Source: Clostridia bacterium (GTDB lineage Bacteria; Bacillota; Clostridia; TANB77; CAG-465). Taken from it: 64,000 nucleotides of DNA. Every line of letters begins with the position of its first letter. Positions within the stretch are counted from its first letter, which is position 1. The notes beneath the pieces were generated by a model, which worked only from the letters and a program-made list of their open reading frames with translations, was not told where the DNA came from and ran no database searches. This document shows, one piece after another, positions 1,045-58,011 of the stretch. The stretch is taken from positions 93,712-157,711 of the forward strand of contig JAZSJJ010000005.1 of NCBI GenBank assembly GCA_045534225.1. The letters run 5' to 3'. Both the position numbers and the translations under genes were made by a program.

Positions 1045-2067
1045 ATGAAAAAGGGAATATCATTAATAGTATTAGTAATAACAATAATAGTTATGATAAT
1101 ATTAGCAGCAAGTGTAGTAATAACACTTAGCGATACTGGAATAATAAACAAAGCTAGTGAAGCAGTAGATTTAACGAATCAAAGTCAGGTACAAGATTTG
1201 GCTGCATTAATATGGGCTGATGCATATATGGCTAACAAAAGAGATGAAGCTTTAGCTACAGAAGTAATAACAAAATTAGGTGAACAAGGAATAGAAGAAA
1301 ACAAATGGAATATAGAAGTATCAAACACAGGAGTAACAGTTACTGTTAAAGACAGTGAAGTAGTTGCCGGCTTAGGTTCTTTAATTACTAAAGATAACTA
1401 TGGAGATACAGTGGATTATACTGTAACGGTAGATGGGGCTACATATACAGATTGGCAAATATATTATCATAATGAAGAGTATGTATATTTGATAACAAAA
1501 GATAAAATAAAAACAGGTTCACTACAAAAAGGTATAAAAGTAGCAACCTTAACAAGTGATGAACTAGCATTATATGAAAAATTTAGAGTAGGTAATGCTA
1601 CAAAATATACACTAGCAGATACAGTAAATGGCTATCAATCATATAATTCGCAAGCGGTAGCGGAACTAATAAAAGATTATGCGAATTTTGCTAATACAAC
1701 AGATTATGGAACAAATGTAGTAGGAGCAATAGGCGGTCCTACAATAGAGTTATTAGCAGCGGGTTGGAATGCAAAAGGGTATACACCAACGATTACTTTA
1801 ACAACAGATACATACGGATATAAAATAAATGGTAAGATTTATATAGATGTAACAGCAGATGAGCTTTATGTACCATCAAAATATTACTACTGGTTGGCAT
1901 CTCCGTCAGCTAGTGATTATCGTGGTTCTATGGATGTTGGTGGTGGCCATGTGTACAGCTATCGTCAATATACTGGCACATGTGCTTTCCGTCCAGTAGT
2001 TTGCCTAAAAGCAGATATCCCAGCAACAGCAGGAAATGGCGATTATGATTTTGAATTAGTAAAATAA
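1045..2067 (+). CDS. pilin-like N-terminal domain protein, paralog 1 (non-canonical prepilin-like leader and transmembrane segment)
   Basis: An AAGGAG RBS precedes the start. The N terminus MKKGISLIVLVITIIVMIILAAS aligns in register with the type IV pilin consensus KKGFTLVELLVVIAIIGILAA, but has Ile for Phe1 and Val for Glu5. The C terminus has a Cys..Cys pair (GTCAFRPVVC) that resembles a pilin D-region. Confidence 0.55.
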   Translation: MKKGISLIVLVITIIVMIILAASVVITLSDTGIINKASEAVDLTNQSQVQDLAALIWADAYMANKRDEALATEVITKLGEQGIEENKWNIEVSNTGVTVTVKDSEVVAGLGSLITKDNYGDTVDYTVTVDGATYTDWQIYYHNEEYVYLITKDKIKTGSLQKGIKVATLTSDELALYEKFRVGNATKYTLADTVNGYQSYNSQAVAELIKDYANFANTTDYGTNVVGAIGGPTIELLAAGWNAKGYTPTITLTTDTYGYKINGKIYIDVTADELYVPSKYYYWLASPSASDYRGSMDVGGGHVYSYRQYTGTCAFRPVVCLKADIPATAGNGDYDFELVK

Positions 2068-13109: not shown

Positions 13110-14465
13110 ATGAAAAAAGGAATATCTTTAATAGTATTAGTAATAACTATAATAGTAATGATAATCTTAGCAGCAAGTGTAGTAATAACGATTAGCAATA
13201 CAGGGATAATAGATAAAGCAAATCAAGCAGTAGATTTATCTAACGAAAGACAAGTGCAAGATTTAGCTTCGATGATTTGGGCAGAGGTATATCTAGATGA
13301 ATCAAGAACGGATTCGATTGAAAAAGTAGTTAAAGATAAATTAGCAGATCAAGGTATAACTGATGAAAATTGGGATATAGTAGTATCTGGGACAGGAGTA
13401 TCTGTTACTACTAAGAAAGAGTCCGAGTGGCCAATTACTTGGAACATGGCGGAAATTACAAATAATATTTCAATAGATATTGGAGGCGGAATGCTATACA
13501 AAGTATCTGATGTAATGCTAACTGAAGGCCAGATGGCAGGAGCTGTAATATCTATGTCATCGGTTAGTATTATTTGCGCACCGTATTTTAATGAAGAGAA
13601 CATAAATGTTTATGCGGCTCTTGATGAAACATCTACATACCAATTAATACTGTTTGTTGTCGAAAAAGCTGGAGCTGTATGTCAACAATTTGGAGGAATC
13701 GTTTTCGAGGAATCGGGAATTTATGTGGCAGATGCGGGTGGAAATTTAGAAGGCCAAGATGTTAATTTATCATTAAATATCCAAAGTGGAATCTATGAAG
13801 AAACAATAACAGATTCATGGAGTGAAATCAAAACATATGTTGATAATGGGACTTATAAATCACATTATAAGTTGGGAGATACGAAAGGAATTAAATGCTT
13901 AGATGGTCGAACCATTTTAGTGGAAATTGTAGCATTTGATGCAGATGCTAAAGCCGATGGGACAAAGGCGTCAATTACATGGATGACAAAAAATATAGTA
14001 AACACTGGTTCGATGAATTCAACAGATACAGTTGTAGGTGGTTGGAAAGATAGTGAAATGCGTAATTGGCTACAGAATGATTTTTATGCTATTTTACCAA
14101 GTGAGGTAACAAGTTCTATTGTGTTAGTAGATAAGACATATTATGATTTTGATACTCGCTCTACATTATCTTGTTTGGATTCTCTATGGCTTCCATCTCG
14201 TCACGAAGTGTTTAGTGAAGAAACTGATACAGGTGCTTATCGTGAAGCTTCGGGAGTAGATTATAGTAGCTATTTTACAAGTAATAAAATAAGAATGAAA
14301 AAGTATAATGGATTACCACTACCTTGGTGGTTGCGTTCTAGTACAGGATTTTCGAATAGTGGAAAAGGGTTTAGTTTTGTTGAGGAAAGTGGCAAAATGT
14401 GTGGTTCAACTTCAGCTACAAGGGCGAACGATGTTTTGGGAATTGTTTTTGGATTTTGTATGTAA
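13110..14465 (+). CDS. pilin-like N-terminal domain protein, paralog 2
   Basis: AGGGGAG RBS. The N terminus MKKGISLIVLVITIIVMIILAASVVITISNTGIIDKANQAVDL is nearly identical to paralog 1. A C-terminal Cys pair is present. Confidence 0.55.
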   Translation: MKKGISLIVLVITIIVMIILAASVVITISNTGIIDKANQAVDLSNERQVQDLASMIWAEVYLDESRTDSIEKVVKDKLADQGITDENWDIVVSGTGVSVTTKKESEWPITWNMAEITNNISIDIGGGMLYKVSDVMLTEGQMAGAVISMSSVSIICAPYFNEENINVYAALDETSTYQLILFVVEKAGAVCQQFGGIVFEESGIYVADAGGNLEGQDVNLSLNIQSGIYEETITDSWSEIKTYVDNGTYKSHYKLGDTKGIKCLDGRTILVEIVAFDADAKADGTKASITWMTKNIVNTGSMNSTDTVVGGWKDSEMRNWLQNDFYAILPSEVTSSIVLVDKTYYDFDTRSTLSCLDSLWLPSRHEVFSEETDTGAYREASGVDYSSYFTSNKIRMKKYNGLPLPWWLRSSTGFSNSGKGFSFVEESGKMCGSTSATRANDVLGIVFGFCM

Positions 14466-15299: not shown

Positions 15300-15353
15300 A
15301 TTAAATGTAGACGCGAGTTTACAGAATTTTATAATTAAAATGGAGGACGTGTG

Positions 15354-15818
15354 ATGTACATAATTGTCACAACCAACAAAGCACTGGCCGAGGAGGCAAA
15401 GAAAAGAGGAGCGAACGTTTTTGAGGACGTTCAGGTAGCAGAGCCCGTTACCCGGTTCGTAAACCAGACCTATGGCGAAGGTGAGATGAAGGTTATCAAC
15501 CTCATGACATCTCTTGCAATCAAGCCCAATCTCAAGGGTTATGATTACATCAAGTATATCATGACGAGCTGCGCAAATGATCCCAAGTATCATCACAGAA
15601 GCATGACCAAGGAAATCTATCCCACATGCGCACGAGAGTTCGATACTACTCCTTCGAGAGTTGAAAGAGCAATCAGACATGCGCTTGAGAGAAGTTTCCA
15701 GGATGTACCTGAGAGATACTTCCAGATCTTCAACAGAGATCTTACCGAGCAGCCGACCAATTCTGAGTTCATCAGCATGATGAGTCAGTATCTTCACAAG
15801 CCGGTAGCCGCTGTGTAA
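15354..15818 (+). CDS. receiver-less Spo0A C-terminal (DNA-binding) domain protein, paralog 1
   Basis: Residues ~60-154 align along their whole length with the Spo0A C-terminal domain (KGYDYIKYI ... YP..A.EFDTTPSRVERAIRHALE ... PTNSEFISMM, versus B. subtilis KGYLYLREAI ... TTASRVERAIRHAIE ... PTNSEFIAMV). There is no CheY-like receiver domain. GC is about 47% against about 30% around it. GGAGG RBS. Confidence 0.75.
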   Translation: MYIIVTTNKALAEEAKKRGANVFEDVQVAEPVTRFVNQTYGEGEMKVINLMTSLAIKPNLKGYDYIKYIMTSCANDPKYHHRSMTKEIYPTCAREFDTTPSRVERAIRHALERSFQDVPERYFQIFNRDLTEQPTNSEFISMMSQYLHKPVAAV

Positions 15819-15916: not shown

Positions 15917-16492
15917 ATGTACATAATTTTAACCAATAATGGTAATCTTGAAAACTATGTAGGAAAGCTTGGTACAACAGCTTTTATGATTCCAAATAGC
16001 ATAAGAAAAGAACGGTATAACAATGAAGGTTTGGTAACAAGCATAAATCGAGGTATCGCAATAATTGCATTGGTAGATGGTGCTAAGGTGTATGAAACTG
16101 TAACTATGCAAGGATTTTTTCCTAAATATGAAACGCGAGAAGACCTTGTAGATAAGCTTATTGACGAGCTTTTTGAAGCTTTATCAATGCGTAAAAACAT
16201 GAAGGGTTATGATTACCTTAAATATATGCTTAAGCAGTATGTTGAGGATGATAATAGCTACTTAAAGTTTGTTTGCAGTGAGGTTTATCCAGAGTGTGCG
16301 GATGTTTTTCATGTTAGCGCAAATACAGTAAGTAAAAATACCAAGGATCTTATCAAGTACAGCTATGAAAGAAATGCTATGAAGTATGAAGTGTTGTTTG
16401 CTCATACAGGTATCGCACCACTTACAGAAGCACCTAAACCTAGTGCATTTTTACCTGTTATAGGTGGAAAGATTCGTGCACTCATAATTTAA
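15917..16492 (+). CDS. Spo0A C-terminal-domain-like protein, paralog 2 (diverged recognition helix)
   Basis: KGYDYLKYMLKQ ... VYPECADVFHVSANTVSKNTKDLIKYS is in register with the Spo0A_C core. It shares the N-terminal motif MYIILTNN with paralog 1 and the C-terminal motif IGGKIR with paralog 3. GGAGGAG RBS. Confidence 0.6.
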   Translation: MYIILTNNGNLENYVGKLGTTAFMIPNSIRKERYNNEGLVTSINRGIAIIALVDGAKVYETVTMQGFFPKYETREDLVDKLIDELFEALSMRKNMKGYDYLKYMLKQYVEDDNSYLKFVCSEVYPECADVFHVSANTVSKNTKDLIKYSYERNAMKYEVLFAHTGIAPLTEAPKPSAFLPVIGGKIRALII

Positions 16493-16569: not shown

Positions 16570-16617
16570 ACTTATGCGTACTTTATATAACAAAATTTTA
16601 ATAAATTGGAGGGAAAG

Positions 16618-17211
16618 ATGAAATCGTACGTTATTGTTACACGGAATATGAATCTTATCAGATGTACTGTTCCGCCAGAAGAAATGTTGCCCGTAGATGA
16701 GGAATGCAGGAAAAAAATGAAGCTTGATGCTGATGTGATCATTTTAGATCACGATCAAGATTTTGCTTTTTTGGCATTTATGGAAGGCTCTAAGGTTTAC
16801 GAAGCTCGTACAAACAAGAAGCTTGTTCCGGAATACGAAACAGAAGAGGAGCTTGTAGAAAAGATGGTAGAGCTTCTTCTTAAGGTTCTGGAAATTGACC
16901 AGAACGAAAAGGGGTATGCATATCTTAAATATATGCTTAAGCTTCATGTGGAAGACCTTGATTACAATTCCGAAACTATGGGAGATGTGGTCTATCCGGA
17001 CTGTGCTAAACATTTCGGTGTAAGCCCGAGAACTGTATCCAAACATGCAAATCGTGTTCTTAGGGATAGCATTGCAAAGAACAAGTATAGACATATTGCT
17101 CTTTGGGACAGTATGGTTGTAGTGGAAGCGGTTGAAAAGCTGAACGTTGCTGGCTTCCTTGTTATTGCAGGCGAGAAAATCAGAACCGTTATTCGTAACA
17201 ATTTAAACTAA
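16618..17211 (+). CDS. Spo0A C-terminal-domain-like protein, paralog 3, with a degenerate receiver-like N-terminal region
   Basis: EKGYAYLKYMLKLHVEDL ... VYPDCAKHFGVSPRTVSKHANRVLRDS matches the Spo0A_C core. The N terminus (YVIVTRN ... DADVIILDHD) resembles a receiver domain that has lost its acidic pocket. GGAGGG RBS. The ATG at 16618 is preferred over the upstream TTG. Confidence 0.6.
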   Translation: MKSYVIVTRNMNLIRCTVPPEEMLPVDEECRKKMKLDADVIILDHDQDFAFLAFMEGSKVYEARTNKKLVPEYETEEELVEKMVELLLKVLEIDQNEKGYAYLKYMLKLHVEDLDYNSETMGDVVYPDCAKHFGVSPRTVSKHANRVLRDSIAKNKYRHIALWDSMVVVEAVEKLNVAGFLVIAGEKIRTVIRNNLN

Positions 17212-37876: not shown

Positions 37877-39559
37877 ATGGCAAAAGAAACTATTGTAGAG
37901 GGATCTCAAGATTTCAAAGATGAATTTTTCGCACAATTAAAGAATTCTGTTATACCAACAGAACCAGAGGTGGGAGCTGGCAAAACAGACAGATTAGCAG
38001 ACCTTTTAGCAAGAAAGGAACAACTTGCAAGAGCTTTGGATGAAGAAACAGATACTATAAAGAAAATGACTTTAAGAAGTGAAATTTCTGAAGTTGAAGA
38101 AGAAATAGCTAAAATTCAAGGTAAAGACGGCTTGGATGAAAAAGAAACTGCAGAAGAAGATTTAGACGAAGATGCTAAAAAAGCAGATGAAGCTAAAGCT
38201 GAAGAGGCAGAAGAGCAAGATTTAGCGGCAAGAGAAGCTCAAGAAAGAGAAGAAGCAGAAAAGAAACAAAGAGAAGCTAGAAGTCTAGCTTTAAGAGAAC
38301 AATATCATGAAGCGTTAGTTGCTCTATACAACCATAAGGTAGTAAGTGCTGAAGAAGCAAAAGCTGCTCAACTTTCTATGACATCAAGAGAAGCTTTCGA
38401 TAAAGAACTACAATTAGAAGCAGAAATGTATAGACTAAGAGATGAATACTTATCTTTAGGAAATGAAGATCCATATACAGAACTTAGAACAGAATTAATG
38501 AAAAAAGAAAGAATGGCTGTAGATCCAATGGAATCTGTAATTAGAAGAGATGCAAAAGAATTTGCAGAACTTCAAAGAAAAGTAGCAGATATAGATGCAA
38601 GAATTGCAGATATAGATAGACAAATTGCAGATGACCAAATGTCTGAAGGTGTTGCAGAAAAATTAAGACAAGAAAGAACAGAGTTAGAAGCTAGAAAAAG
38701 TGCAACTGTAAAGAAAGCAACGGTGCTTAAAGAAAGATTAACTCCAATAGTAGCAGAAAAAGCAAGACGTTCAGAAGCAAGACTAGAATTAGATGCTAAA
38801 CTTGTAGAAACATTTAGTCCGGAAGACAGTAAAAATCATCAATACCAACAAAAACAAGCACAAACAATAACAACTAATACAGAACAAGGATTAAGACAAG
38901 AATATAGACATCTAAATGAAAGAATTGGACGCAGAGAAGAACGTATATTAGAACTTAAAGAACAATTATCTAGAACACCAATAGATGACTTCGAAGGAAG
39001 ATTAAATTTATTAACAGAATTAGATAGGGAAGCTACATTATTAGAAGCAGATAGAGAATCAAGAACTGATTTAAGAAGAAAAGACAGATTAACACCAGAA
39101 CAAAGAGCTAAAAAAGCTAAAGAACGTGAAGAAGAAATTGAAACAAGAGCTGAAGACTTCTATAAAGAAACAGATGAGGCTAGGGATTTAGTAAGAGCTC
39201 AAAACAAATTTATTGGACAAGACACAGTTGCAAATCCAGTACAAAATACAATTACAGAAACCACAGATAGAAATATTAAAACTGTAGCTGCAACACATGC
39301 TATAATATCAGGTGGACCAAACGATTCTTTATCTAAAAACTATTTAGAATATCAATCTACAAAGCAAATTCTTACAGTAATGAGAGATGATGAAGAAGTT
39401 GCACCATCTGTAATACCTGGTCTAGAAGATAAAGTTATAGACATTGAAGATGTTGAAGAAGCTCAAAAATACTTAGAACAAAACGATGAATTAGCAAGAG
39501 CTAATGAACAACTATTAGAACAACAAAAACAAGTAGAAGAAAGAACAGCAAATATATAA
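37877..39559 (+). CDS. hypothetical highly charged coiled-coil protein
   Basis: 560 aa, rich in E, K, R and A with long predicted coiled coils. It is inserted between queA and tgt. Confidence 0.5.
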   Translation: MAKETIVEGSQDFKDEFFAQLKNSVIPTEPEVGAGKTDRLADLLARKEQLARALDEETDTIKKMTLRSEISEVEEEIAKIQGKDGLDEKETAEEDLDEDAKKADEAKAEEAEEQDLAAREAQEREEAEKKQREARSLALREQYHEALVALYNHKVVSAEEAKAAQLSMTSREAFDKELQLEAEMYRLRDEYLSLGNEDPYTELRTELMKKERMAVDPMESVIRRDAKEFAELQRKVADIDARIADIDRQIADDQMSEGVAEKLRQERTELEARKSATVKKATVLKERLTPIVAEKARRSEARLELDAKLVETFSPEDSKNHQYQQKQAQTITTNTEQGLRQEYRHLNERIGRREERILELKEQLSRTPIDDFEGRLNLLTELDREATLLEADRESRTDLRRKDRLTPEQRAKKAKEREEEIETRAEDFYKETDEARDLVRAQNKFIGQDTVANPVQNTITETTDRNIKTVAATHAIISGGPNDSLSKNYLEYQSTKQILTVMRDDEEVAPSVIPGLEDKVIDIEDVEEAQKYLEQNDELARANEQLLEQQKQVEERTANI

Positions 39560-44069: not shown

Positions 44070-44909
44070 ATGAGTATAGTAGATGTAAAACAAATAGTAG
44101 AAAACAAGAAAGTAAAATTAAAAAGAGAAATACTAGATTTAAGAGATAAAGGAATAGTTCCTAAACTTGCAGTTATACTTGCAAATGATTCTGATGCATC
44201 AAGAGTATATGTAGGAAGAAAAAGAAAACTTTGTCACGAATTAGGAATAGAAGAAACAGAGTATCTTTTTGATGAAAAAGTAACTACAGATAACATATTA
44301 AAAGTAATAACTAAATTAAACAATGATCCAGAAGTAGATGGAATACTTGTTCAATTACCATTATTCAAGCACCTAGATGAATCTAGAATAATAGATAGTA
44401 TAGTCCCAGAAAAAGATGTAGATGGTTTCTCTGCTATAAATGTTGGTAGACTATATCAAGGAAAAGATGAAATAGTTCCATGTACACCAAAAGGTGTTCT
44501 AACAATATTAAAAGAATTAGAACCAGAACTTAAAGGAAAGAATGCAGTTGTAGTTGGACGTTCTCAAATAGTTGGTAAGCCAATGGCAGCATTATTGTTA
44601 AACGAGAATATGACAGTAACAATATGTCACTCAGCTACAACTAATCTTCCAGAACACACAAGAACAGCAGATGTGCTAGTAGTAGCAACAGGAATACCTC
44701 ATTTAATTAAAGATAATATGGTTAAAGAGGGAGCGATAGTAATAGATGTTGGAATGACTAGAGTAAAAGAAAAACTAGTTGGAGATGTAGATACAGAAAA
44801 TGTAGACAAAGTAGCCAAATATGTAACACCTGTTCCTGGTGGAGTAGGACTTACTACAGTGTATAGCTTAGCAGAAAATGTAGTAGAAATAGCTAAAAAA
44901 AGAAAATAA
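44070..44909 (+). CDS. folD: bifunctional methylenetetrahydrofolate dehydrogenase / methenyl-THF cyclohydrolase
   Basis: FolD fold, length and motifs (GRSQIVGKPMA, PVPGGVGLTT). Confidence 0.85.
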   Translation: MSIVDVKQIVENKKVKLKREILDLRDKGIVPKLAVILANDSDASRVYVGRKRKLCHELGIEETEYLFDEKVTTDNILKVITKLNNDPEVDGILVQLPLFKHLDESRIIDSIVPEKDVDGFSAINVGRLYQGKDEIVPCTPKGVLTILKELEPELKGKNAVVVGRSQIVGKPMAALLLNENMTVTICHSATTNLPEHTRTADVLVVATGIPHLIKDNMVKEGAIVIDVGMTRVKEKLVGDVDTENVDKVAKYVTPVPGGVGLTTVYSLAENVVEIAKKRK

Positions 44910-44990: not shown

Positions 44991-45770
44991 ATGATAAGTA
45001 AGAAAGGAATAAGTTTAATAGTTTTAGTTATAACAATAATAGTAATGGTAATACTTGCAGGAGCTGTTATAATTACTCTTGAAAATACAAACTTAATAAA
45101 ACATTCTAAACATGCTACGAATAGTACAAATTATGCGCAAGAGATAACAAGATTAGAAATAATAAAGAATGGAATACTAACAGATAACTTAGGAAAAATA
45201 ACAGTAGCAGAATATATAACAGAACTAACAAACAAAGGAATAATAGAAGGAACTGTAACAGATAATGCAGACGGAAGTAAAACGTTTACAACAGATACTG
45301 GAGCTGAAGTTACTGTAACACAAAATGGAGCTAGAGATTTGTTAATAAAAATAGCTGGCTATGAACAAGGTAATAATAATTCTTCTAGTAGTGATAATGC
45401 AGGTGAAGTTGCTGGTGAAAATCAATTAAACGGAACTTGGATGTTTAATGAAGAAATATCATATCATAATTATCTTGGATATAAAGAAGTAAATTTTACA
45501 TCTAACGGCGTAAGCTATATAGGTATGAATTTATGGGATGAAACAACAACAACTCCAACAGGTGCTGCAGTTTATAATTATGGTATAGGTTACAATACGG
45601 AAGCGCCTAAGTCAGGGAATTATTGGGCGGTAATCGCGTTTTCGTATAACATATCAGATACGGGTGTATGGAAATCCAATGCATATAGAACGATAGATTT
45701 TGGTACTTCTATACAAGATGTAGACGCTGATTTCTATACTTGGTTTATAGCTAATGCAACGAAACAATAA
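44991..45770 (+). CDS. pilin-like N-terminal domain protein, paralog 3
   Basis: AGAGAGG RBS. N terminus MISKKGISLIVLVITIIVMVILAGAVIITLENTNLI; the C-terminal region is unrelated to the other paralogs. Confidence 0.55.
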   Translation: MISKKGISLIVLVITIIVMVILAGAVIITLENTNLIKHSKHATNSTNYAQEITRLEIIKNGILTDNLGKITVAEYITELTNKGIIEGTVTDNADGSKTFTTDTGAEVTVTQNGARDLLIKIAGYEQGNNNSSSSDNAGEVAGENQLNGTWMFNEEISYHNYLGYKEVNFTSNGVSYIGMNLWDETTTTPTGAAVYNYGIGYNTEAPKSGNYWAVIAFSYNISDTGVWKSNAYRTIDFGTSIQDVDADFYTWFIANATKQ

Positions 45771-45789: not shown

Positions 45790-45825
45790 CCCCTAAGGTA
45801 AATCCTTAGGGGAATATTTTTATTC
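45790..45825. terminator. bidirectional terminator
   Basis: Hairpin cccctaagg-taaat-ccttagggg flanked by A and T runs. Confidence 0.7.
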
Positions 45826-48240
45826 ATTTTTGTTATCACCAGTATCAATTATAATATCAAAATCTGTAGGATTATTGAAATCGAATGATTGAACTGCTGG
45901 TTGATCATCTGTATCAATAATTGGTTCTACAAGGTTGTCATTTTCTTTTATTGCGTTAGATGAGAAACTATTTGTAGTAACTGAGTTTGCATCACTAAAT
46001 ATGTTGTCATCATCTTCATCTAAAATACTTGATGCTGCATTTGATGTAAGTGGTTTGTTTATCATAAACTTTTCAAAGTTGTACATATATGCTGGATGTT
46101 TTTGTTTGTATTTTTCTTCAAGGAAATCAACTTTACCTTCACCGAAAATACTATTTCCATTATCAAGTTTAGTCTTGTAGTAAATTGCTCCAAATTTATG
46201 CTCTGCAATTTTATGAACTTTGAATCTTTCTTTATCTTTAAGAGATACGGATTTCTTAGCCTTGAAGTTATCTGTTGGATCAAAGCTTGAAGACATATCT
46301 ACTTTCTTAGTCATACCGAAAGCTTTATTCCAGTATTCACTATCTTCAGGTACTGTATCACCAAATACGATTTGAGTTTTTGTATTGGCAAGTACAACTT
46401 GTCTATAATATTCAAAGCCTTTATTCTTTTCAAGTTGTGATAAGTTTTGTATTGCTATTGTAGCACCACATCTATATTTTCTAAATAGTGTGAACATTAC
46501 TTCTGTATCTTTGTTGATGTATTCAGGGAATTCATCAATGTATAAGAAGTGAGGTATACGAGAATCTTCTGAACCAGGTCTTCTTAGTACTGCGTCTTGG
46601 AATTGTAGTATGAAGAACATACCGAATGCCTTAGAAGCAATCATACCAAGTTCACCTTTTCTAGAACATGCTGTAATAACTTTACCTTCTCTTAAAGCAG
46701 CGTCAAAGTCTATAACATTTGTTCTACCACATAGAGCTCTCTTAATACCAGGATGTCTTAATAAGTTGTTTAATTGAGTTATAGCACCGTACAAGTATCT
46801 TTCGGTATCTTTTCTACCACTACCTCTTGTACCAGGTATTTCAAAACCATTTATATTTAATGTTGGTTTATAGAAGTTCTTCTCAAAGTATGCAATAAGT
46901 AGTTTATACTTTTCTGCAAGCTCTGGAATTTTCTTCATATCTTCTGTCATTTCTTCAACTTTATCAAAGTTGTATAGCATATCTAACACGTCTTCAAGTG
47001 ATGGTAATGCACCATTGTTAAGTCTTGGATACATTTCTTTAAGAAGTATAGATAGGTTTTGGAATGCGTCTGAAGTTAAGTTAGCAAAGAATGCTTCTTC
47101 TTTAGCGCCTTCACTTTGTTGCATAGATTTTAGAACGTCTGCTATTATTGATGCAACCTTAGCTGGATCTTCAATAGCAAATGGGTTCATACTTAATGTA
47201 TGTTCTGGATCTGCTGGGTCTATAGTTAATACATCGATGTCGAAGTTCTTAGCAACATTTGTAAAGTTTGTTACGTATGAGCCATCGTTTTCAACAACTG
47301 TAACACCAACACCACGATATACAACTTCACCAGTTTCGCTGTTATTATATAATATTACATCTTTTAACTCTGAGTAAAATTCTTTTTCTCTGCCTTTTTT
47401 AGGTTGTAAGTAATTTAAACTAAAATTTAGATTTATATATTCGTTAGAGAAAGGACCTTCTATATATGCAATACCTTTCTTTAATAATTCATAACCTAAT
47501 TTTTTAGAATACTCACGCAAGAAGTATTTCTTTTCAAGGTCTCTAGCACTCATTGGTAATAATACCATTGCTGTTTTACCAGTACCAGTAGCACCTTGTA
47601 CAAGTGTAGATTCCATTCTCTTCTTTTCAGGAACTACAATAGGTTTTAATGTTTCTACGTCTTTACATATAATATTTTCGCAAGTAAATATTCCGTTGTT
47701 AGATTTTGGTTTTTTAACACCTAAACCACCAAATGCTATAATACCTTTAGTAATATCGTCATCTCTTAATACTAGTAAAGCATAATCTACTAAAGAGAAT
47801 ATAGATATAAATGGTATACAGAAACAGAATGTTTTAATTGCTGGTCCAAATAATTCTGGATATTCAGTTATTAATAGATTATAGTTAGGTAGTTTTTCTA
47901 ACAACATCCAAACTACTTTATTGATGTTTGTTATAATTAATGAGTTTGTTATAGCACCCATTATACCAACGCCAATTATAAACCATTTAATTCTAGCGTC
48001 TTTGCCAGATATTAGTTTAGAGTTTACTCCGTATGAATACCATAATACAGGGCATACTAATGCGATAGCATATAGTATTGGATCTGGATAAATTGGTAAT
48101 CTACCAGCTGGTACTACAAATAATGTAAATACTTGTACTATTATAAATGCAACGACTATCATGGTAAAGAAACCAAATATCGATGCGATAAATTTGTTTT
48201 GATCTTTTATTTTAAGTTTACTAAGAATGTTATATAACAA
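45820..48240 (-). CDS. type IV secretion coupling protein-like ATPase (VirD4/TraG/TraD family), orphan
   Basis: Four to five N-terminal transmembrane helices; Walker A GATGTGKT; the characteristic C-terminal block FLYIDEFPEY ... IAIQNLSQLEKNKG ... NTKTQIVFGDTVPEDSEYWNKAFG (the LDEF / QSxxQL / TqIvfg pattern of T4CPs). No other T4SS genes are nearby. Confidence 0.65.
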   Translation of the reverse strand: MLYNILSKLKIKDQNKFIASIFGFFTMIVVAFIIVQVFTLFVVPAGRLPIYPDPILYAIALVCPVLWYSYGVNSKLISGKDARIKWFIIGVGIMGAITNSLIITNINKVVWMLLEKLPNYNLLITEYPELFGPAIKTFCFCIPFISIFSLVDYALLVLRDDDITKGIIAFGGLGVKKPKSNNGIFTCENIICKDVETLKPIVVPEKKRMESTLVQGATGTGKTAMVLLPMSARDLEKKYFLREYSKKLGYELLKKGIAYIEGPFSNEYINLNFSLNYLQPKKGREKEFYSELKDVILYNNSETGEVVYRGVGVTVVENDGSYVTNFTNVAKNFDIDVLTIDPADPEHTLSMNPFAIEDPAKVASIIADVLKSMQQSEGAKEEAFFANLTSDAFQNLSILLKEMYPRLNNGALPSLEDVLDMLYNFDKVEEMTEDMKKIPELAEKYKLLIAYFEKNFYKPTLNINGFEIPGTRGSGRKDTERYLYGAITQLNNLLRHPGIKRALCGRTNVIDFDAALREGKVITACSRKGELGMIASKAFGMFFILQFQDAVLRRPGSEDSRIPHFLYIDEFPEYINKDTEVMFTLFRKYRCGATIAIQNLSQLEKNKGFEYYRQVVLANTKTQIVFGDTVPEDSEYWNKAFGMTKKVDMSSSFDPTDNFKAKKSVSLKDKERFKVHKIAEHKFGAIYYKTKLDNGNSIFGEGKVDFLEEKYKQKHPAYMYNFEKFMINKPLTSNAASSILDEDDDNIFSDANSVTTNSFSSNAIKENDNLVEPIIDTDDQPAVQSFDFNNPTDFDIIIDTGDNKNE

Positions 48241-48359
48241 AAAATATCACCACTTTCATTTAAATCTTGTAAATAAACTTTTTCTGCTATATAATATACT
48301 ACAGATTGAGTAAAAATTCAAGTAAAAGTAGCGAATTATGGTAGAAATGAGGTAAATTT

Positions 48360-48893
48360 ATGAAGTGTATTATAGGACTAGGTAATATAGGCAAAGAATA
48401 TGAGTATACTAGACATAATATGGGATTTGTAATGCTAGACAAAATAGCTGAAAAAAATAATATAAAGATAGACAAGAAAATGAAGAAATATATCTATGGC
48501 GAAGGTAACATAAACGGTGAAAAAGTATGCTTGGTAAAACCAACTACATATATGAATCTTAGTGGCGAAGCTATAGTAGAGCTTATGAATTGGTACAAAA
48601 TAGATAAAGAAGATATTGCAGTTATATATGATGATATAGACATACCATTTGGAGACGTAAGATATAGATTAAATGGAAGCGCTGGCACTCATAATGGAAT
48701 GAGAAACATTATAGCTATGATTAAAACCGAAGATTTTGCAAGAATAAGAGTTGGTATAGAAAACAGAAATGGAGTACCAATACCACTTGTGGATTATGTT
48801 CTTCAAAGAATGAGTAAAGATGAAATTAAAACAATCGATGATACAATATATAATATAGTAGAAGAAAATGTAAACAAGTTCTTGACAAAATAA
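48360..48893 (+). CDS. pth: peptidyl-tRNA hydrolase
   Basis: MKCIIGLGNIGKEYEYTRHNMGF N terminus and a length of 177 aa. Confidence 0.9.
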   Translation: MKCIIGLGNIGKEYEYTRHNMGFVMLDKIAEKNNIKIDKKMKKYIYGEGNINGEKVCLVKPTTYMNLSGEAIVELMNWYKIDKEDIAVIYDDIDIPFGDVRYRLNGSAGTHNGMRNIIAMIKTEDFARIRVGIENRNGVPIPLVDYVLQRMSKDEIKTIDDTIYNIVEENVNKFLTK

Positions 48894-50817: not shown

Positions 50818-52254
50818 ATGATTGCAGAATGTGCACTTTTAGGTGCAGGTGCAGTTGTTGCATCTGATGCAGTGAAAATAGAATATTTAAAAAGCAAACA
50901 CCGTGAATTAACTGATGCAGAAAAACATGAATTCATGTCTGATGATTCTAGACGTTTTATTCATTTTACATCAGAAGCGAGTGCTAAAAGAATAATGCAA
51001 TCGGGTTTCTTAATTCCAACTAAAGGTGTGGTAAACAATCATTTTACTAGAAGTATGGATTCTAGAGGTAGAACTCGTGATTCGGAAATGGTATATATGT
51101 TTGATTCTGCAACTTTTAGTGTAGATGATTATATACGCAACTTGCCAATAAAACGTTCACCGTTTAACGGCTGTTATGAATATTATGCAATAAGTACCAA
51201 GCCAAATAAATATGATATACATGATTTTAGAAAAAGAGCTCAGGATGGAGCGATTACATATGAAGGTAGATTAGATATTGATGGTACAGATACAAGACTT
51301 GTTAAATATGCGTTAACATTGGACGAGCAGGGAGAATATACATTTACAGAAATGGCAATGGACGCAGAATATACACCAACACCAGAACTACTAGCGAAAC
51401 TAGAGAAAGACAAAACAACAGCCATAGGATATATAGCAAAAACATATATGTCTGAAGTAAGAAAATCTAAAGAATCTATGAGAAGATTTAGAGCAGAAAA
51501 AGATATATATAAAGAGCAAATAAGAAGAAAAAAAGAATTAGCTAAGGCTAATAGACAGTTTGCTCAAGAAGAAAAGGATAAATCATATATATATGAACAA
51601 GATGGTAGAACAATAGTAGTTAAGAATATAGAATATGAACAAGTAGGTGGAAAGAAACTTCAAAAAATAGCAATAATGGAAAGAGAAGATGAAAGTAAAA
51701 AATCTAAACCTAGTATGACATTTTGTTATATGGATGAATTAGATGTATCTAAACTTGAACCAGAAGTTGCTAGTAAATATTTTTTCACTAACCATGATGA
51801 GGCTAGAAATAGCAAAAGCAAAATGCCTAGATATATTGGTATGCCGCTTTTAAATCTTGAAACAGGTGAAGTAGTAAATGAATATGATACAACCATAGAT
51901 AAAGATTTTAGAGCACATATGGATAGAAAGTATAAAACAAGTGAAGCTTTGGAAGAAAGATACGAAAAAGTTAAAAAAAGTAGAGGGATAGTTGCTAAAG
52001 TAAAATCAATGTTTTTGAGAATATTTAAGAAGGAACAACCTTTGACATTATCTGAAGCCGAAGCAGATAGACAAAGATTAGCAGATATGGGATATTCAAG
52101 TGTTGAAGCTATGAATAATGACGATAGAGATGCAAAAATGTTTAAACTTCTAGAAGATGGAACATATCCACCGGAAGAAGTTGCAACATACGATTTAACA
52201 AACGAAAGACAAGATACATTAATGTGTGAACCAAGAGAAGTAGAGGAGAAATAA
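50818..52254 (+). CDS. hypothetical protein (478 aa), translationally coupled to obg
   Basis: Strong AGGAGG RBS. Its stop codon abuts the obg start (52254/52255). No recognisable motif. Confidence 0.5.
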   Translation: MIAECALLGAGAVVASDAVKIEYLKSKHRELTDAEKHEFMSDDSRRFIHFTSEASAKRIMQSGFLIPTKGVVNNHFTRSMDSRGRTRDSEMVYMFDSATFSVDDYIRNLPIKRSPFNGCYEYYAISTKPNKYDIHDFRKRAQDGAITYEGRLDIDGTDTRLVKYALTLDEQGEYTFTEMAMDAEYTPTPELLAKLEKDKTTAIGYIAKTYMSEVRKSKESMRRFRAEKDIYKEQIRRKKELAKANRQFAQEEKDKSYIYEQDGRTIVVKNIEYEQVGGKKLQKIAIMEREDESKKSKPSMTFCYMDELDVSKLEPEVASKYFFTNHDEARNSKSKMPRYIGMPLLNLETGEVVNEYDTTIDKDFRAHMDRKYKTSEALEERYEKVKKSRGIVAKVKSMFLRIFKKEQPLTLSEAEADRQRLADMGYSSVEAMNNDDRDAKMFKLLEDGTYPPEEVATYDLTNERQDTLMCEPREVEEK

Positions 52255-53963: not shown

Positions 53964-54045
53964 TTTTAAAACAACTTGCGAACTATCGTAGGTTGTTATT
54001 TTTGTATATACAATGTTCTCTTGCTAGAAAGGGGGACATTTTTTA

Positions 54046-54173
54046 TGCTTGAATTTAAGATAATACAAGAATTAAAGCCAAATACTGAAATACTAGAAAT
54101 CATTAAAAACTACACTTACAAAACTAAAAATGGAAATATAAATGGGTTCGGAAGAATAAGACTCACATATTAA
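54046..54173 (+). CDS. hypothetical small protein (42 aa), possibly a gene remnant
   Basis: GGGGGA RBS followed by an ATG. It lies in AT-rich DNA next to the tRNA together with other short ORF fragments. Confidence 0.25.
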
Positions 54174-54588
54174 AAAGAACATAAACAAGCACTTTATACA
54201 ACACTTTTAATGACAAATGAGCTTACAAATCATCTTATTCTAGTAAGTAAAAATGCAGAAGATTTGCTAAATAATTTGATGGAAAGTTACAAAGAAACTG
54301 ACGAAAAATTATCTGAAAAAAAAGTAAAGCAATGAATCAAATTGAGTGGGTTAAACTAATGAATAATTACAAAAATATAGTAGAAGAAATTATATTAAAA
54401 GAATATATTTTTATATAAGAAAATGTAAAAAAAGAGGAAAAAATTATACAATAATTTATATTTTTAGCTAATGTGGGAGTAAAAAATTAAAATAGCCAGC
54501 ACTGAATTTGTACTCCCATACAAATTCATATGTGGGGAAAATCCCCAACCTCCCTTAAATTTTGAAAAATAATAATTAGAAAAAAATA

Positions 54589-54629
54589 CAATGAAGATTT
54601 CATTTTCTACATTGTATTTAATTTTATTA
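54589..54629 (-). terminator. rho-independent terminator of the minus-strand four-gene operon
   Basis: Inverted repeat aatacaatg ... cattgtatt with a 15-nt loop, followed on the minus strand by a T-run. Confidence 0.5.
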
Positions 54630-54633
54630 AATA

Positions 54634-55293
54634 TTAATAATTTGCATTCCACTCTGATAAAAATTCATTTACAAAATCTTTCATAAAATTGGTTCTTTTT
54701 TCAGCAAGTTCTTTGGCTGTTTTTGTATTCATATTATCACCAAGTTTAAATAGTTTATGATAGAAATGATGTATTGTAGATTCATCATCCCCATTAGATT
54801 CGGCATAATCGTTTTTTTCATTTAATGGAGCACTAGGATCGTACATAACAACATTGTGTGCACCACCATAAGAAAAAGTTCTCCCAATTCCAATAGCACC
54901 TATAGCATCTAAATTATCTGCATCTTGCAATATTAAAGTGTTTATATCATCAACATTATTTCCATTCCAATTATATTGTTCGTGATATTCAATACAATAA
55001 CATATCTTTTCAACTTGTTCATTAGTTAAATCTATTTTTGATAATATATTTCTAATAGTATCTAAAGAATCTTTTGGAGAAACAAAAGTACCTGTTTCAT
55101 TTTGCATTATTCTATGTACATCATGAAGAAAAGCAGCAACACCTATTACAATTCTATCTCCACCTTCTTTTGCTTGAAGATACAATGCAGTGTTCATTGT
55201 TCTTTCTAAATGACTAATATCGTGACCACTAGAATCTTTTTTAAATAATTCGATTACAAGAGGTCTTAAATCTTCTATATATTTTTCTAACAT
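54634..55293 (-). CDS. HD-domain phosphohydrolase
   Basis: H..HD..H..H..D pattern (SGHDISHLERT ... FLHDVHR ... QDADNLDAIG). Confidence 0.7.
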   Translation of the reverse strand: MLEKYIEDLRPLVIELFKKDSSGHDISHLERTMNTALYLQAKEGGDRIVIGVAAFLHDVHRIMQNETGTFVSPKDSLDTIRNILSKIDLTNEQVEKICYCIEYHEQYNWNGNNVDDINTLILQDADNLDAIGAIGIGRTFSYGGAHNVVMYDPSAPLNEKNDYAESNGDDESTIHHFYHKLFKLGDNMNTKTAKELAEKRTNFMKDFVNEFLSEWNANY

Positions 55294-55304
55294 ATTAATC
55301 CTCC

Positions 55305-56468
55305 TTAAAAATCTTTAAATATTTTCTCTAAGTTTTGTAAGGCTATTTTTAGTTTTTCTTTAGGTAAGGCTATATTGATTCTTTGAAATCCTTTACCAGA
55401 ACTACCAAACATTTTTCCGTTATCTAACCATAATTTTGCTTCTTTAATCATTAATTCTTCTATTTTATCATCTGATAAATTTAATTCATTAAAATCTAAC
55501 CAAAGAAGATATGTTCCCTCGGGATAAATTAATTTAATCTTTGGTAATCTTTCTTTTAAAAATATATCTACATAATTTATATTATCTAACAAATATTTTT
55601 TTAATTCATTTAACCAATTCTGACCTTTTTCATAAGCTGATTGGCAAGCAACTAACCCCATTATATTTATAAGGCTATAGCCTGTATTCCATAATTCTAA
55701 TTGGAATTTTTCACGAATTTCTTCATTTGGTATAAATATATTAGATACTTGTAATCCAGCTAAGTTAAATGTTTTTGTTGGAGCAGTACAAAGTATTACT
55801 TGATTTTGAATATCTGTACAATTTAATATACAAGTATGATTTCCTTTCCAAATAAAATCGCTATGTATCTCATCACAAACAATAAATACATTATATCTTT
55901 TGCAAATTTCAATAATTTTATTTAATTCATTTTTAGTCCAGACTTTACCAACTGGATTATGAGGAGAACACAACAAATATGCTTTAACATTATATTGTTT
56001 AATTTTATTTTCAAAATCTTCAAAATCTATTTCATAATGACCATTTGTTAGTACTAAATCACTACTTACAATTTTTCTTTTATTATCTTTTACGACTTCA
56101 GTAAATGGATAATAAACAGGATTATTTATTAATACACAATCATTTTCTTGAGTAAGTGTTTTTACTGCTGTTGCTAGAGCAAATACTATACCGGGAGTTA
56201 TTACAAGCCACTCTTGTTTTAACTCTACATTATGATTTTGTTTATACCAATTTTCAATCGCATTAAAATATGTCTCATCATTTTTAGAATATCCAAATAC
56301 TCCGTGGTCTATTTTTTTATGCATATCATTTAATATTTCTTCGCAACATTTAAAATCCATATCAGCGACCCACATAGGAAATACATCATCTGGCTTATTC
56401 TTATCAGATTTAAAATCGTATTTTAAACTATTAGTTTTGTTTCTATTTATTTCTTCGTCAAAATTCAT
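55305..56468 (-). CDS. patB: PLP-dependent C-S lyase (MalY/PatB family aminotransferase class I/II)
   Basis: The VFPMWVADMDF motif and a length of 387 aa are typical of MalY/PatB cystathionine beta-lyases. Confidence 0.7.
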   Translation of the reverse strand: MNFDEEINRNKTNSLKYDFKSDKNKPDDVFPMWVADMDFKCCEEILNDMHKKIDHGVFGYSKNDETYFNAIENWYKQNHNVELKQEWLVITPGIVFALATAVKTLTQENDCVLINNPVYYPFTEVVKDNKRKIVSSDLVLTNGHYEIDFEDFENKIKQYNVKAYLLCSPHNPVGKVWTKNELNKIIEICKRYNVFIVCDEIHSDFIWKGNHTCILNCTDIQNQVILCTAPTKTFNLAGLQVSNIFIPNEEIREKFQLELWNTGYSLINIMGLVACQSAYEKGQNWLNELKKYLLDNINYVDIFLKERLPKIKLIYPEGTYLLWLDFNELNLSDDKIEELMIKEAKLWLDNGKMFGSSGKGFQRINIALPKEKLKIALQNLEKIFKDF

Positions 56469-56480
56469 ATTTTACCTCCT

Positions 56481-57305
56481 TTAATTATTTTCTATTTCTT
56501 CTAAAATTTTATTCCAATCATCTCTATATAAAGCATTAGTTAATATATTTTCTAAATATATGTTATATATATTTTCATTATATGTGGGTTGAACCAAAGG
56601 CATATTAGCCATCAGAAATAATAGAACAGCTAAAGTTTTATCATCTGTTTTTTCAAAAAATATTCCTCTTGTATCATTGAAACTTATTTGACCTTTACAA
56701 GAATTTATAATTGTGTAATCTCCAGCAACAATAACATCAAATTGATGTATACGTTTTATTTTATTATCTTTATAAAAATTTAAAATAGTATCAATTAATT
56801 TTTCAATATCAGAATATGTTTTCTCTGCATATAGGATAGTAGGAATTTTATATGTATATTCATTTTTATCTTTTTCCCAAATGAGACCATTTCTAACTCT
56901 AGTCAATTCTTTTACACTTTTTATTTGTTTGAGTGCTCTTTCAATTTCATCCTTATCGCATAAAGCCCCTTTAATCTCCACTGCATAATCTACACCATCT
57001 GCAAAAATAACTGATGCCTTTTTATTTTTTATATCTATGGTATGTGGATGTGATGGATCAAGTATTATACAATCTATAGATGCACTTCTTTTATTATAAC
57101 TATCTATAATATTTCCTTTTGTAATTCTATAAGGAAAAGGAAAATATTTTTCAAAAAAGGAGTGAAATATTTCTTCTCGTCTATCTGCAATTTCTTGTGG
57201 AGTACCTTTTCCTTCAACAGAAGCTTTAGACAAACCTAATTTTAATTCTTGATATTCTAACTCTAACAATTTAATAAATTCATCATTCATTCTTAAGTTC
57301 TCCAT
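56481..57305 (-). CDS. hypothetical protein with a possible PD-(D/E)XK nuclease-like motif
   Basis: SIDCIILD ... (27 aa) ... VDYAVEIKG fits the hhhD ... hhhExK core. GC is about 25%. The ORF overlaps the upstream gene by 23 nt. Confidence 0.4.
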   Translation of the reverse strand: MENLRMNDEFIKLLELEYQELKLGLSKASVEGKGTPQEIADRREEIFHSFFEKYFPFPYRITKGNIIDSYNKRSASIDCIILDPSHPHTIDIKNKKASVIFADGVDYAVEIKGALCDKDEIERALKQIKSVKELTRVRNGLIWEKDKNEYTYKIPTILYAEKTYSDIEKLIDTILNFYKDNKIKRIHQFDVIVAGDYTIINSCKGQISFNDTRGIFFEKTDDKTLAVLLFLMANMPLVQPTYNENIYNIYLENILTNALYRDDWNKILEEIENN

Positions 57306-58011
57306 TCTTAGTTTTTTCTATACTTTCCATAATTTTGCATAAATGTATTCCTAAATACGTAAATGTAAAACAAAGATATGTATTAAATGAATCAGTCATT
57401 TTATTTGGAATATATTTTGATAATTTTATAAAATTGTTATATGATAGTTTTTCAAATACATTGAATATATTTGAACTTTCTTGACTTGGCATTAGAGTAA
57501 GTGATTCTCCAATTATCAAACTATTCTCATTACTAACAAAATCATCTTTATTTACACGATATTCATAATTCATTATTAAATCGGGAACAAATTCATAATT
57601 ATTGCCAATTTCTTTTTTTAAATGATTTACATCAAATTTTTCATTTCCTCGTTTTTTCCAAAGATTAAAGTATAACACATCTATATCATTTTTTGTTAAT
57701 TTCATAAAACCATCAATAATATTTTCGAAGTTGTCTTCTGACATATTTAATATATTTACTGCTATTTCAATAAAATAATCTGATTCTTCAGATAACGCTT
57801 TTACAATTAGATTTTTGATTTTATATCTATTGATAATCTTGTATTGAAATATATCAAATTCTTGTAATTTTTTATTTAAAATATCTATTTTTTCATTTAT
57901 AATTTCTATTTCATCAACACTTAAATAAGAATTTAAGTATCCATTCATTAGAGAGCCAATTGTACCATAAGAATTTATTTTTAAATTACTACAATTTTTT
58001 ATTTGTTGCAT
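57283..58011 (-). CDS. hypothetical protein (first gene of an AT-rich four-gene operon)
   Basis: 242 aa with no recognisable motif. GC is about 25%. Candidate extended -10 upstream (ttgtataat on the minus strand). Confidence 0.45.
   Translation of the reverse strand: MQQIKNCSNLKINSYGTIGSLMNGYLNSYLSVDEIEIINEKIDILNKKLQEFDIFQYKIINRYKIKNLIVKALSEESDYFIEIAVNILNMSEDNFENIIDGFMKLTKNDIDVLYFNLWKKRGNEKFDVNHLKKEIGNNYEFVPDLIMNYEYRVNKDDFVSNENSLIIGESLTLMPSQESSNIFNVFEKLSYNNFIKLSKYIPNKMTDSFNTYLCFTFTYLGIHLCKIMESIEKTKNGELKNE

Follow-up and report, generated by a model that had tools for sequence, protein, structure and literature searches.

Genes for conjugation are usually taken as markers of mobile elements, and an isolated gene for a type IV coupling protein (T4CP) is usually read as debris left by an integrative conjugative element (ICE). 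The rvh type IV secretion system (T4SS) of the Rickettsiales is inherited vertically across its lineage, and its genes have been rearranged into chromosomal islets (PMC2653234). Here we describe a gene for a VirD4/TraG/TrwB-type coupling ATPase, at 45820-48240 on the minus strand of a 64-kb stretch of a Clostridia genome (assembly GCA_045534225.1, contig JAZSJJ010000005.1; the whole 64,000 nucleotides are hereafter called the window), for which the evidence is the opposite of that expected of debris. This T4CP and its partners are conserved, diverge in step with core genes and are spread among housekeeping loci in more than 100 species of gut and rumen Clostridia that are abundant though uncultured. 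The protein is probably an ATPase that recruits substrates for a conjugation-type T4SS, one that is dispersed and inherited vertically. An earlier reading of the same DNA (the original prediction) had regarded the gene as an orphan, either the last remnant of an ICE or a protein recruited to another transport function.

The system proposed here is like rvh in being a vertically inherited T4SS scattered over the chromosome. The two differ in that rvh is a Gram-negative, P-type effector system without a relaxase, whose virD4 is arrayed with other vir genes, whereas the system of the window's lineage is of Gram-positive type, includes a relaxase candidate and has its T4CP gene standing alone. It would be a Gram-positive counterpart to the Rickettsiales "archipelago" T4SS, with a relaxase candidate in addition and, with it, possible host-controlled DNA transfer.

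The window gene encodes a type IV coupling protein

The open reading frame (ORF) begins with a TTG codon and specifies 806 residues; the start codon and the N-terminus of the protein, LLYNILSKLKIK, are kept identically among relatives. Residues 17-158 (47767-48192; this and all other features of the gene are on the minus strand) form an N-terminal membrane domain with four predicted transmembrane (TM) helices. Hydropathy peaks were found at residues 17-35, 48-66, 86-104 and 130-158, and helices at residues 14-42, 54-73, 80-116 and 128-157 in a first AlphaFold model, in which the confidence score (pLDDT) was 70-87 in this region. Four to five helices had been predicted originally; the fifth was not found by hydropathy. 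The canonical number of TM helices in a T4CP is two.

The ATPase motifs and the C-terminal T4CP block named in the original prediction were all located, and are conserved in 27 members of the family, the alignment of which has more than 200 invariant columns. The Walker A motif, GATGTGKT (residues 216-223; 47572-47595), is invariant. The Walker B region, FLYIDEFPEY (residues 565-574; 46519-46548), matches that of the Legionella coupling protein DotL, and D569, E570, F571, P572, E573 and Y574 within it do not vary. The same is true of Q598, N599, L600, S601, Q602 and L603 in the block TIAIQNLSQLEKNKG (residues 594-608; 46417-46461), which lies in the TraG-D_C region. A fourth motif, ANTKTQIVFGDTVPEDSEYWNKAFG (ANTKTQ...AFG), begins at residue 618. 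Almost every residue of these four motifs is invariant, with the exception of parts of the third.

Residues 736-806 (45823-46035) make up a variable and strongly acidic C-terminal tail, with 18 Asp or Glu residues versus 2 Lys or Arg, which is weakly conserved except for a DFDIxIDTG motif. We suggest that this tail would serve to dock partner proteins. The orthologue at locus L008 (L-numbers denote loci of relatives; L008:10001-12133), in a relative with 97% identity, ends at 710 residues and is without the acidic tail, either because it is genuinely truncated or because of a mistake in the assembly.

Searches with hidden Markov models supported the VirD4/TraG-type assignment. Scores above the gathering threshold (GA) were obtained for the Pfam families T4SS-DNA_transf (35 bits; GA 20.1) and TraG-D_C (34 bits; GA 22), while TrwB_AAD_bind, the third family proposed as a check on the assignment, was slightly under its threshold (20.2 bits; GA 20.5). 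Scores for the NCBIfam equivalog models VirD4, TraD and MobC were far under their cut-offs, and by this measure the protein is a distant member of its family. A search of the PDB with the single T4CP sequence gave no relevant match. With a family profile, the top solved relative was DotL at a marginal E = 0.0075, with an alignment that covered the Walker A and the Walker B/Q-motif regions.

The first AlphaFold model, built from 27 close homologues, had a pLDDT of 53 and was not used for fold searches, whereas an AlphaFold2 model of the soluble domain (residues 185-740) from an alignment of 127 sequences reached a pLDDT of 95 and a pTM of 0.92. Foldseek comparison of this second model to the PDB returned T4CPs as the top 39 matches (Cagbeta, TrwB and DotL; E 9e-13 to 4e-9, TM-score up to 0.69), with Helicobacter pylori Cagbeta the best of them. 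HerA ranked after the T4CPs (E 1.5e-8) and was followed by DndH and VirB4, with TdpAB also lower; there was no FtsK chain among the top 50 PDB fold matches, and no Pfam match of the protein to FtsK_SpoIIIE or HerA. The protein has the features by which a T4CP is known, namely a P-loop nucleotide-binding domain with Walker A and an hhhhDE-type Walker B (residues 565-570), an N-terminal TM anchor and, in its relatives, association with relaxase and VirB4-T4SS genes. From profiles and fold together, the product of 45820-48240 is a genuine type IV coupling protein.

Like R388 TrwB, Cagbeta and DotL, the window T4CP has a membrane anchor, an acidic tail, Walker A and B motifs and a P-loop nucleotide-binding domain into which an all-alpha region is inserted. 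It departs from them in its TM helices, four where two are canonical, in an additional beta-rich stretch at about residues 640-705 and in a 70-residue tail, and it is only 13-14% identical to the solved T4CPs. A further difference is that its gene stands apart from the other genes of the system, at a fixed place next to pth.

The T4CP gene is vertically inherited and strongly constrained

A word-indexed search identified 603 T4CP homologues, the best 120 of which are full-length and 56-97% identical, and an exhaustive search at E<1e-30 identified 158 clusters, in which identity falls to about 25-35% among relatives that are still full-length. In a scan with one genome per species, relatives were present in 137 genomes, all of them metagenome-assembled genomes (MAGs) of Clostridia from the gut or rumen that have not been cultured, among them Clostridium sp. 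CAG:465, CAG:1219, UBA1234 and UBA4698. We suspect that they fall within the GTDB order TANB77. Two loci, L079 and L080, come from MAGs labelled Ignavibacteriales and Deltaproteobacteria and carry a Clostridia-type T4CP (46-49% identical) together with pth and both of the partner genes described below; the bins probably bear the wrong label or are contaminated.

In 83 of 85 loci the gene pth is divergent from the T4CP gene, 120-340 bp upstream, and the two loci without pth end at that edge; rplU-rpmA come next in 68 loci. Pairwise distances between T4CPs followed those of TrpS plus Obg with a Spearman coefficient of 0.906 and a slope of 1.01 (39 genomes), and those of Pth plus RplU plus RpmA with a Mantel r of 0.876 (0 of 999 permutations). 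The dN/dS ratio of the window T4CP gene was 0.05-0.14 relative to eight relatives. Based on this ratio, the synteny with pth and the co-divergence with TrpS and Obg, the T4CP gene is vertically inherited and strongly constrained. The suggestion that the gene might be specific to a strain, for which a comparison of synteny had been proposed, did not survive the finding of relatives in so many species and, nearly always, beside pth.

Partner genes of the T4CP

At loci L001 and L005 the T4CP gene is convergent with a gene for a protein of about 320-340 residues, which we refer to as RR, and with a gene for an S1-domain protein, S1; the two RR and two S1 orthologues are 51% and 53% identical, respectively. 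The pair is convergent downstream of the T4CP gene in 17 of the 85 loci, distributed over several sub-clades. It is retained at L089, where identity of the T4CP is only 36% and the gene has lost pth from its side. Since the adjacency spans sub-clades and extends to a relative as distant as that, the T4CP-RR-S1 trio looks like an ancestral unit.

RR matched the Pfam family Replic_Relax over the full profile, with scores of 28.4 and 30.2 bits (GA 25.3). Replic_Relax proteins have a PD-(D/E)XK nuclease fold, usually fused to a helix-turn-helix (HTH) domain (PMC3424549), and the family corresponds to the MOB_C class of relaxases (PMC5357655, Table 1; PMC12857230). TraX of pAD1, the MOB_C prototype, has an N-terminal winged HTH and an active site like that of restriction endonucleases (PMC12857230). 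RR is on this basis a candidate relaxase of MOB_C class. It is like the MOB_C relaxases pAD1 TraX and CloDF13 MobC in its Replic_Relax assignment and PD-(D/E)XK class (PMC3424549, PMC5357655, PMC12857230) and unlike them in being very divergent, chromosomal and missed by plasmid typing. RR is also uniform, at 340-343 residues and 69-92% identity over the 120 best-scoring clusters, which differs from the relaxases of mobile elements. Residues K151, K166, R212, E253 and H257 are invariant, the plasmid copy included.

An 18-bp palindrome, ATATTAAAATTTTAATAT, is located directly upstream of the RR start codon, once per locus (L001:13705-13722; L088 and L091:9972-9989; also L015-L017 and L092-L094), with the variant TTATTAAAATTTTAATAA in L086 (L086:9970-9987); all 11 loci agree in the 16-bp core TATTAAAATTTTAATA. 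The RR proteins of the genomes that bear it are 77-83% identical, and the palindrome sits within a conserved region of about 200 bp that has a TGnTATAAT promoter. It is a candidate for an operator or for part of an origin of transfer (oriT). The window has no copy of the palindrome, which was looked for around the T4CP gene.

A T4SS operon in related genomes

When they are apart from the T4CP gene, RR and S1 normally terminate an operon of about 17 genes, which encodes a single-stranded DNA-binding protein (SSB), TrbC-like pilins, a PrgI-like protein, VirB4, membrane proteins and a cell-wall hydrolase. In five loci (L001, L015, L016, L030 and L034) this operon directly adjoins the T4CP gene. 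At L086 a VirB4-type ATPase (DUF87, P-loop_TraG, AAA_10) comes first, then six proteins without annotation, an M23 hydrolase, S1 and RR, and L088 and L091 have the same plan. L086 also has a separate, full-length FtsK/SpoIIIE gene nearby, with alpha, motor and gamma domains.

The most telling locus is L095 (contig JAZKXT010000004.1 of assembly GCA_045611765.1). Its order is SSB, two small proteins resembling TrbC, one resembling T4SS_pilin, a PrgI-family protein, a 467-residue protein and VirB4 (663 residues), followed by six membrane or unknown proteins, a CHAP hydrolase, a 224-residue protein and S1. The PrgI-family match (23 bits) is sub-threshold, as are the TrbC and T4SS_pilin signals. 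Upstream of the operon are PGI, SDR and APH genes.

A second contig of that assembly, JAZKXT010000012.1 (L004/L011), carries a T4CP gene whose product is 79% identical to the window's and which has the window's genes on both flanks (tgt-cls-dpaA-like-uppP-folD and pth-rplU-rpmA-trpS-obg), with the exceptions that an HD-domain gene replaces the pilin-like ORF of the window and that a different gene occupies a variable slot near trpS. Neither RR nor S1 is near the T4CP gene in L004. Since the L095 operon and the L004 T4CP belong to one assembly, a genome with an orphan layout like that of the window has the full system elsewhere. This same-assembly link was obtained with P0459; no tie to the window's genus came from P0329 and P0424, which traced to a different assembly and metagenome scaffolds. 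In a mirror-tree comparison, the window clade and its sister ranked top as owners of the L088 and L091 operons (Pearson 0.974-0.981), with most other candidates at 0.89-0.955 and four distant loci showing negative correlation, a result suggestive of the window clade as an operon owner. The original prediction was therefore correct in calling the gene an orphan locally, but not for the lineage, which keeps a relaxase candidate, S1 and a VirB4 operon either nearby or on another contig.

VirB4 and RR are conserved even more than the T4CP. VirB4 is 77-97% identical over 120 clusters and is called a VirB4-like protein of Clostridium sp. CAG:1219 in one source, and its nearest NCBIfam family is VirB4-like CD1110 (E 1.5e-63). 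Between L095 and the operons of L091, L088 and L086, identities are 86-96% for VirB4, 77-94% for RR and 64-88% for S1, versus just 25-70% for the membrane and surface proteins and the hydrolase, the pattern that would be expected if the exposed parts were under diversifying pressure.

The operon has features in common with Gram-positive conjugative T4SSs, such as the Prg/Pcf system of pCF10. Its VirB4 matches CD1110 and Mbov_0397, of the CD1110/CD1115 Clostridioides ICEs and the Mycoplasma ICE, at E 1e-61 to 1e-63, and there is a PrgI-like protein two genes upstream of VirB4, a multidomain hydrolase and pilin-like proteins. It is unlike them in that the matches are all under the family cut-offs, no integrase or excisionase was seen, and the distribution is lineage-wide instead of patchy. 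Neither the window nor the flanks of L001, L086, L088, L091 and L095 contained an integrase, although element borders were not searched exhaustively.

The closest plasmid-borne T4CPs are 34% identical over residues 191-725 and are encoded on Clostridium botulinum and C. beijerinckii plasmids (NZ_KT897275-80 and NZ_CP107023.1, respectively, the latter being L090). The C. beijerinckii plasmid encodes a 1001-residue T4CP, an S1 protein, an RR homologue (26%), a DUF87 VirB4 (41%), a membrane protein that is also homologous, and a C39 peptidase. It shares with the chromosomal system the occurrence of these components together, and it differs in that its T4CP has about 1000 residues and its system, uncharacterised, lies among recombinase genes, whereas the system of the MAGs is chromosomal, dispersed and vertical. 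The chromosomal system descends from, or has a common ancestry with, this little-known Clostridium type of T4SS. Relatives of RR were found on only seven plasmids, all typed as non-mobilizable, and it seems that MOB-suite typing does not recognise this branch of relaxases and T4SSs. A search of the literature on such lineage-wide T4SSs found nothing specific, which, given its limited coverage, is weak evidence of novelty.

Proposed mechanism and alternative explanations

We propose that a T4SS has become fixed in the chromosome throughout this clade of uncultured, spore-forming gut and rumen Clostridia, with its genes dispersed: the T4CP gene would stay divergent from pth, and RR, S1 and the channel operon would adjoin it or sit elsewhere. 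The substrate would be DNA. RR may bind and nick a cognate site, after which S1 and SSB would handle the single strand. A membrane-anchored hexamer of the T4CP would then recognise the nucleoprotein complex, possibly through its acidic C-terminal tail, and spend ATP to feed it into a channel energised by VirB4. The stable gene positions, the lack of an integrase in the flanks examined and the core-like divergence indicate that this conjugation-type machine behaves as a core trait of its hosts, and not as a mobile element, in more than 100 species.

Several points weigh against this proposal. Most of the channel components match T4SS families below threshold only, there is no NCBIfam model for RR, RR is merely 24-26% identical to its plasmid relatives, and an oriT was not identified. 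To place the operon, RR and S1 in the genome of the window itself is an extrapolation, the closest direct evidence being the relative with 79% T4CP identity, and the description of the system as "core" is based on synteny and co-divergence. In addition, a conjugation system with neither a visible integrase nor a patchy distribution is atypical, and for this reason the system may have changed function, for example to protein secretion or to DNA export or uptake.

The best surviving alternative, although we consider it unlikely, is that this is a protein-secreting or contact-dependent T4SS akin to rvh or Cag, in which the T4CP recruits proteins and RR is an HTH regulator or a nuclease. It has in its favour the precedent of rvh, a known scattered and vertical effector T4SS (PMC2653234), the top fold match to Cagbeta, itself an effector T4CP, the description of Replic_Relax as a predicted HTH-fused transcriptional regulator (PMC3424549) and the resemblance of the palindrome upstream of RR to an operator. 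However, the operon opens with SSB and closes with an S1/OB-fold protein and a MOB_C-class protein, in Clostridium the homologous genes are carried together on a plasmid, and no candidate effectors were identified.

That the T4CP of the window's genus has a role independent of a T4SS, perhaps that of a membrane translocase acting by itself once the operon had been lost, is in our opinion quite improbable. Such a role would fit with the operon not having been shown in the window's genome, with the four TM helices and the extra C-terminal beta-rich region, and with a position beside pth that is fixed wherever the operon lies. It is opposed by the MAG of matching local arrangement, which retains the full operon, by the mirror-tree ranking, which favours the window clade as owner of the L088 and L091 operons, by the ancestral RR/S1 trio and by the conservation of VirB4 and RR, greater than that of the T4CP itself. 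The recruitment to another transport function that had been proposed originally is likewise needless, given a cognate relaxase candidate, S1 and a VirB4 operon in the lineage.

There is very little probability that the protein is an FtsK/SpoIIIE- or HerA-type pump for sporulation or segregation, or an anti-phage ATPase paired with a PD-(D/E)XK nuclease. The host is a spore-former (spoIVA, spoIIP and Spo0A_C genes are in the window), HerA, DndH and TdpAB do occur lower among the fold matches, and there was a weak PADLOC match to mad8 (27.9 bits). Against these, neither of the two Pfam families was matched, the best T4CP matches exceed HerA by at least four orders of magnitude in E-value (9e-13 versus 1.5e-8), and best homology to FtsK or HerA, the outcome that was to disprove the original assignment, was thus not observed. 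RR and S1 had no PADLOC match and are embedded in a VirB4 operon. Two specific candidates were rejected: a sporulation DNA pump or replacement for FtsK, since a separate, full-length FtsK is present in the lineage (L086), and a defence system, since PADLOC gave only the weak mad8 match and none for the partner proteins.

Finally, it is scarcely credible that the gene is the last, non-functional or decaying remnant of an ICE, for although the window is devoid of T4SS, relaxase and integrase genes and the orthologue at L008 is shortened to 710 residues, the gene is under purifying selection with all its ATPase motifs invariant, is kept at its locus in all but two of the loci compared and in well over 100 species, diverges at the same rate as housekeeping genes such as trpS and obg, has partner genes retained elsewhere in the genome of a clade member, and is not abutted by any ICE, a complete one next door having been a possibility that the original prediction left open.

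Returning to the proposed dispersed conjugation-type T4SS, we advance, as less likely than not, the broader idea that a gut Clostridia clade at the level of an order has the whole of a conjugation apparatus (T4CP, MOB_C-like relaxase, S1, SSB and VirB4 channel) and passes it on vertically as a core trait, not as a selfish element, with cytoplasmic parts that evolve at a slow, housekeeping rate, surface parts that evolve fast and the T4CP gene beside pth throughout. Should DNA still be moved by this system, the machine would belong to the host and serve to exchange chromosomal genes or to export DNA, and it would represent an uncharacterised branch of T4SSs and relaxases that current plasmid typing scores as non-mobilizable. 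Pipelines for mobilome annotation would miscall such genes as ICE fragments and miss the branch. The T4CP, the PD-(D/E)XK protein and the S1 protein define a three-part module that can be tested.

Genomic surroundings of the T4CP gene

The window is core chromosome of a spore-former, with a GC content of about 31%, and its genes include dnaE, leuS, pheST, rny, spoIIP, spoIVA, recJ, queA, tgt, cls, uppP, folD, rplU, rpmA, trpS and obg as well as Spo0A_C genes. The T4CP gene is flanked, as originally described, by folD (44070-44909), a pilin-like ORF (44934/44991-45770) and pth (48360-48893, plus strand), with folD and pth identified by orthology to Pfam-annotated genes in L004. The divergent neighbour pth is an anchor of synteny and not a functional component of the T4SS. 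A Pfam scan of about 48 ORFs of the window found housekeeping, sporulation or unrelated families only, with no relaxase, VirB4, VirB6 or integrase, and a tblastn search of the window with 15 T4SS-operon proteins plus S1 and RR gave no match at E<=0.01. Both are in agreement with the original prediction, which had seen none of these four genes.

The T4CP gene and the pilin-like gene converge on a common bidirectional intrinsic terminator (45790-45812), whose 9-bp stem includes 6 G-C pairs and which has runs of T on both strands, so that the shared terminator noted originally was verified. The 119-bp divergent spacer between the T4CP gene and pth (48241-48359) contains promoter-like hexamers on both strands, the matches being not above chance.

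The pilin-like neighbour is one of three paralogues in the window (1045-2067, 13110-14465 and 44991-45770), as its description as a paralogue had implied. Their N-termini, M(IS)KKGISLIVLVITIIVM(I/V)ILA, are nearly the same, resemble those of prepilins and have Val in place of Glu at +5, whereas the C-terminal parts are unlike, one with DUF6273; none of the three matches a Pfam pilin family. Since the pilin-like gene is found beside the T4CP gene in the closest relatives only (L006-L008 and L010), the adjacency is coincidental, which had already been allowed for, and a functional link between the two was rejected because the neighbour is not conserved.

Some other genes of the window were unusual or variable. 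Of three tandem paralogues (15351-15818, 15917-16492 and 16606-17211), two carry the C-terminal DNA-binding domain of Spo0A alone, an unusual arrangement; a receiver-domain family was not detected in the set. The minus-strand stretch at 54000-58000 has a GC content of 0.24-0.26 relative to about 0.31 elsewhere and includes a DUF6602/NERD-like, nuclease-related gene (56481-57305) that overlaps an unannotated ORF of 242 residues (57283-58011); it may be a small acquired island.

The neighbourhood of trpS is variable. Between trpS and obg, the window encodes a 478-residue protein without a family match (50818-52254), and in this slot L003 has a 284-residue homologue of about 30% identity. The rpmA-trpS slot contains an unannotated gene for 354 residues in L004, a gene for 209 residues in L001 and a PhoH-like gene in L003. 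Between queA and tgt, the window encodes a Glu/Lys-rich protein of 560 residues (37877-39559) that has no family match and is probably a coiled coil, and the same slot in L004 holds an unannotated protein of 619 residues.

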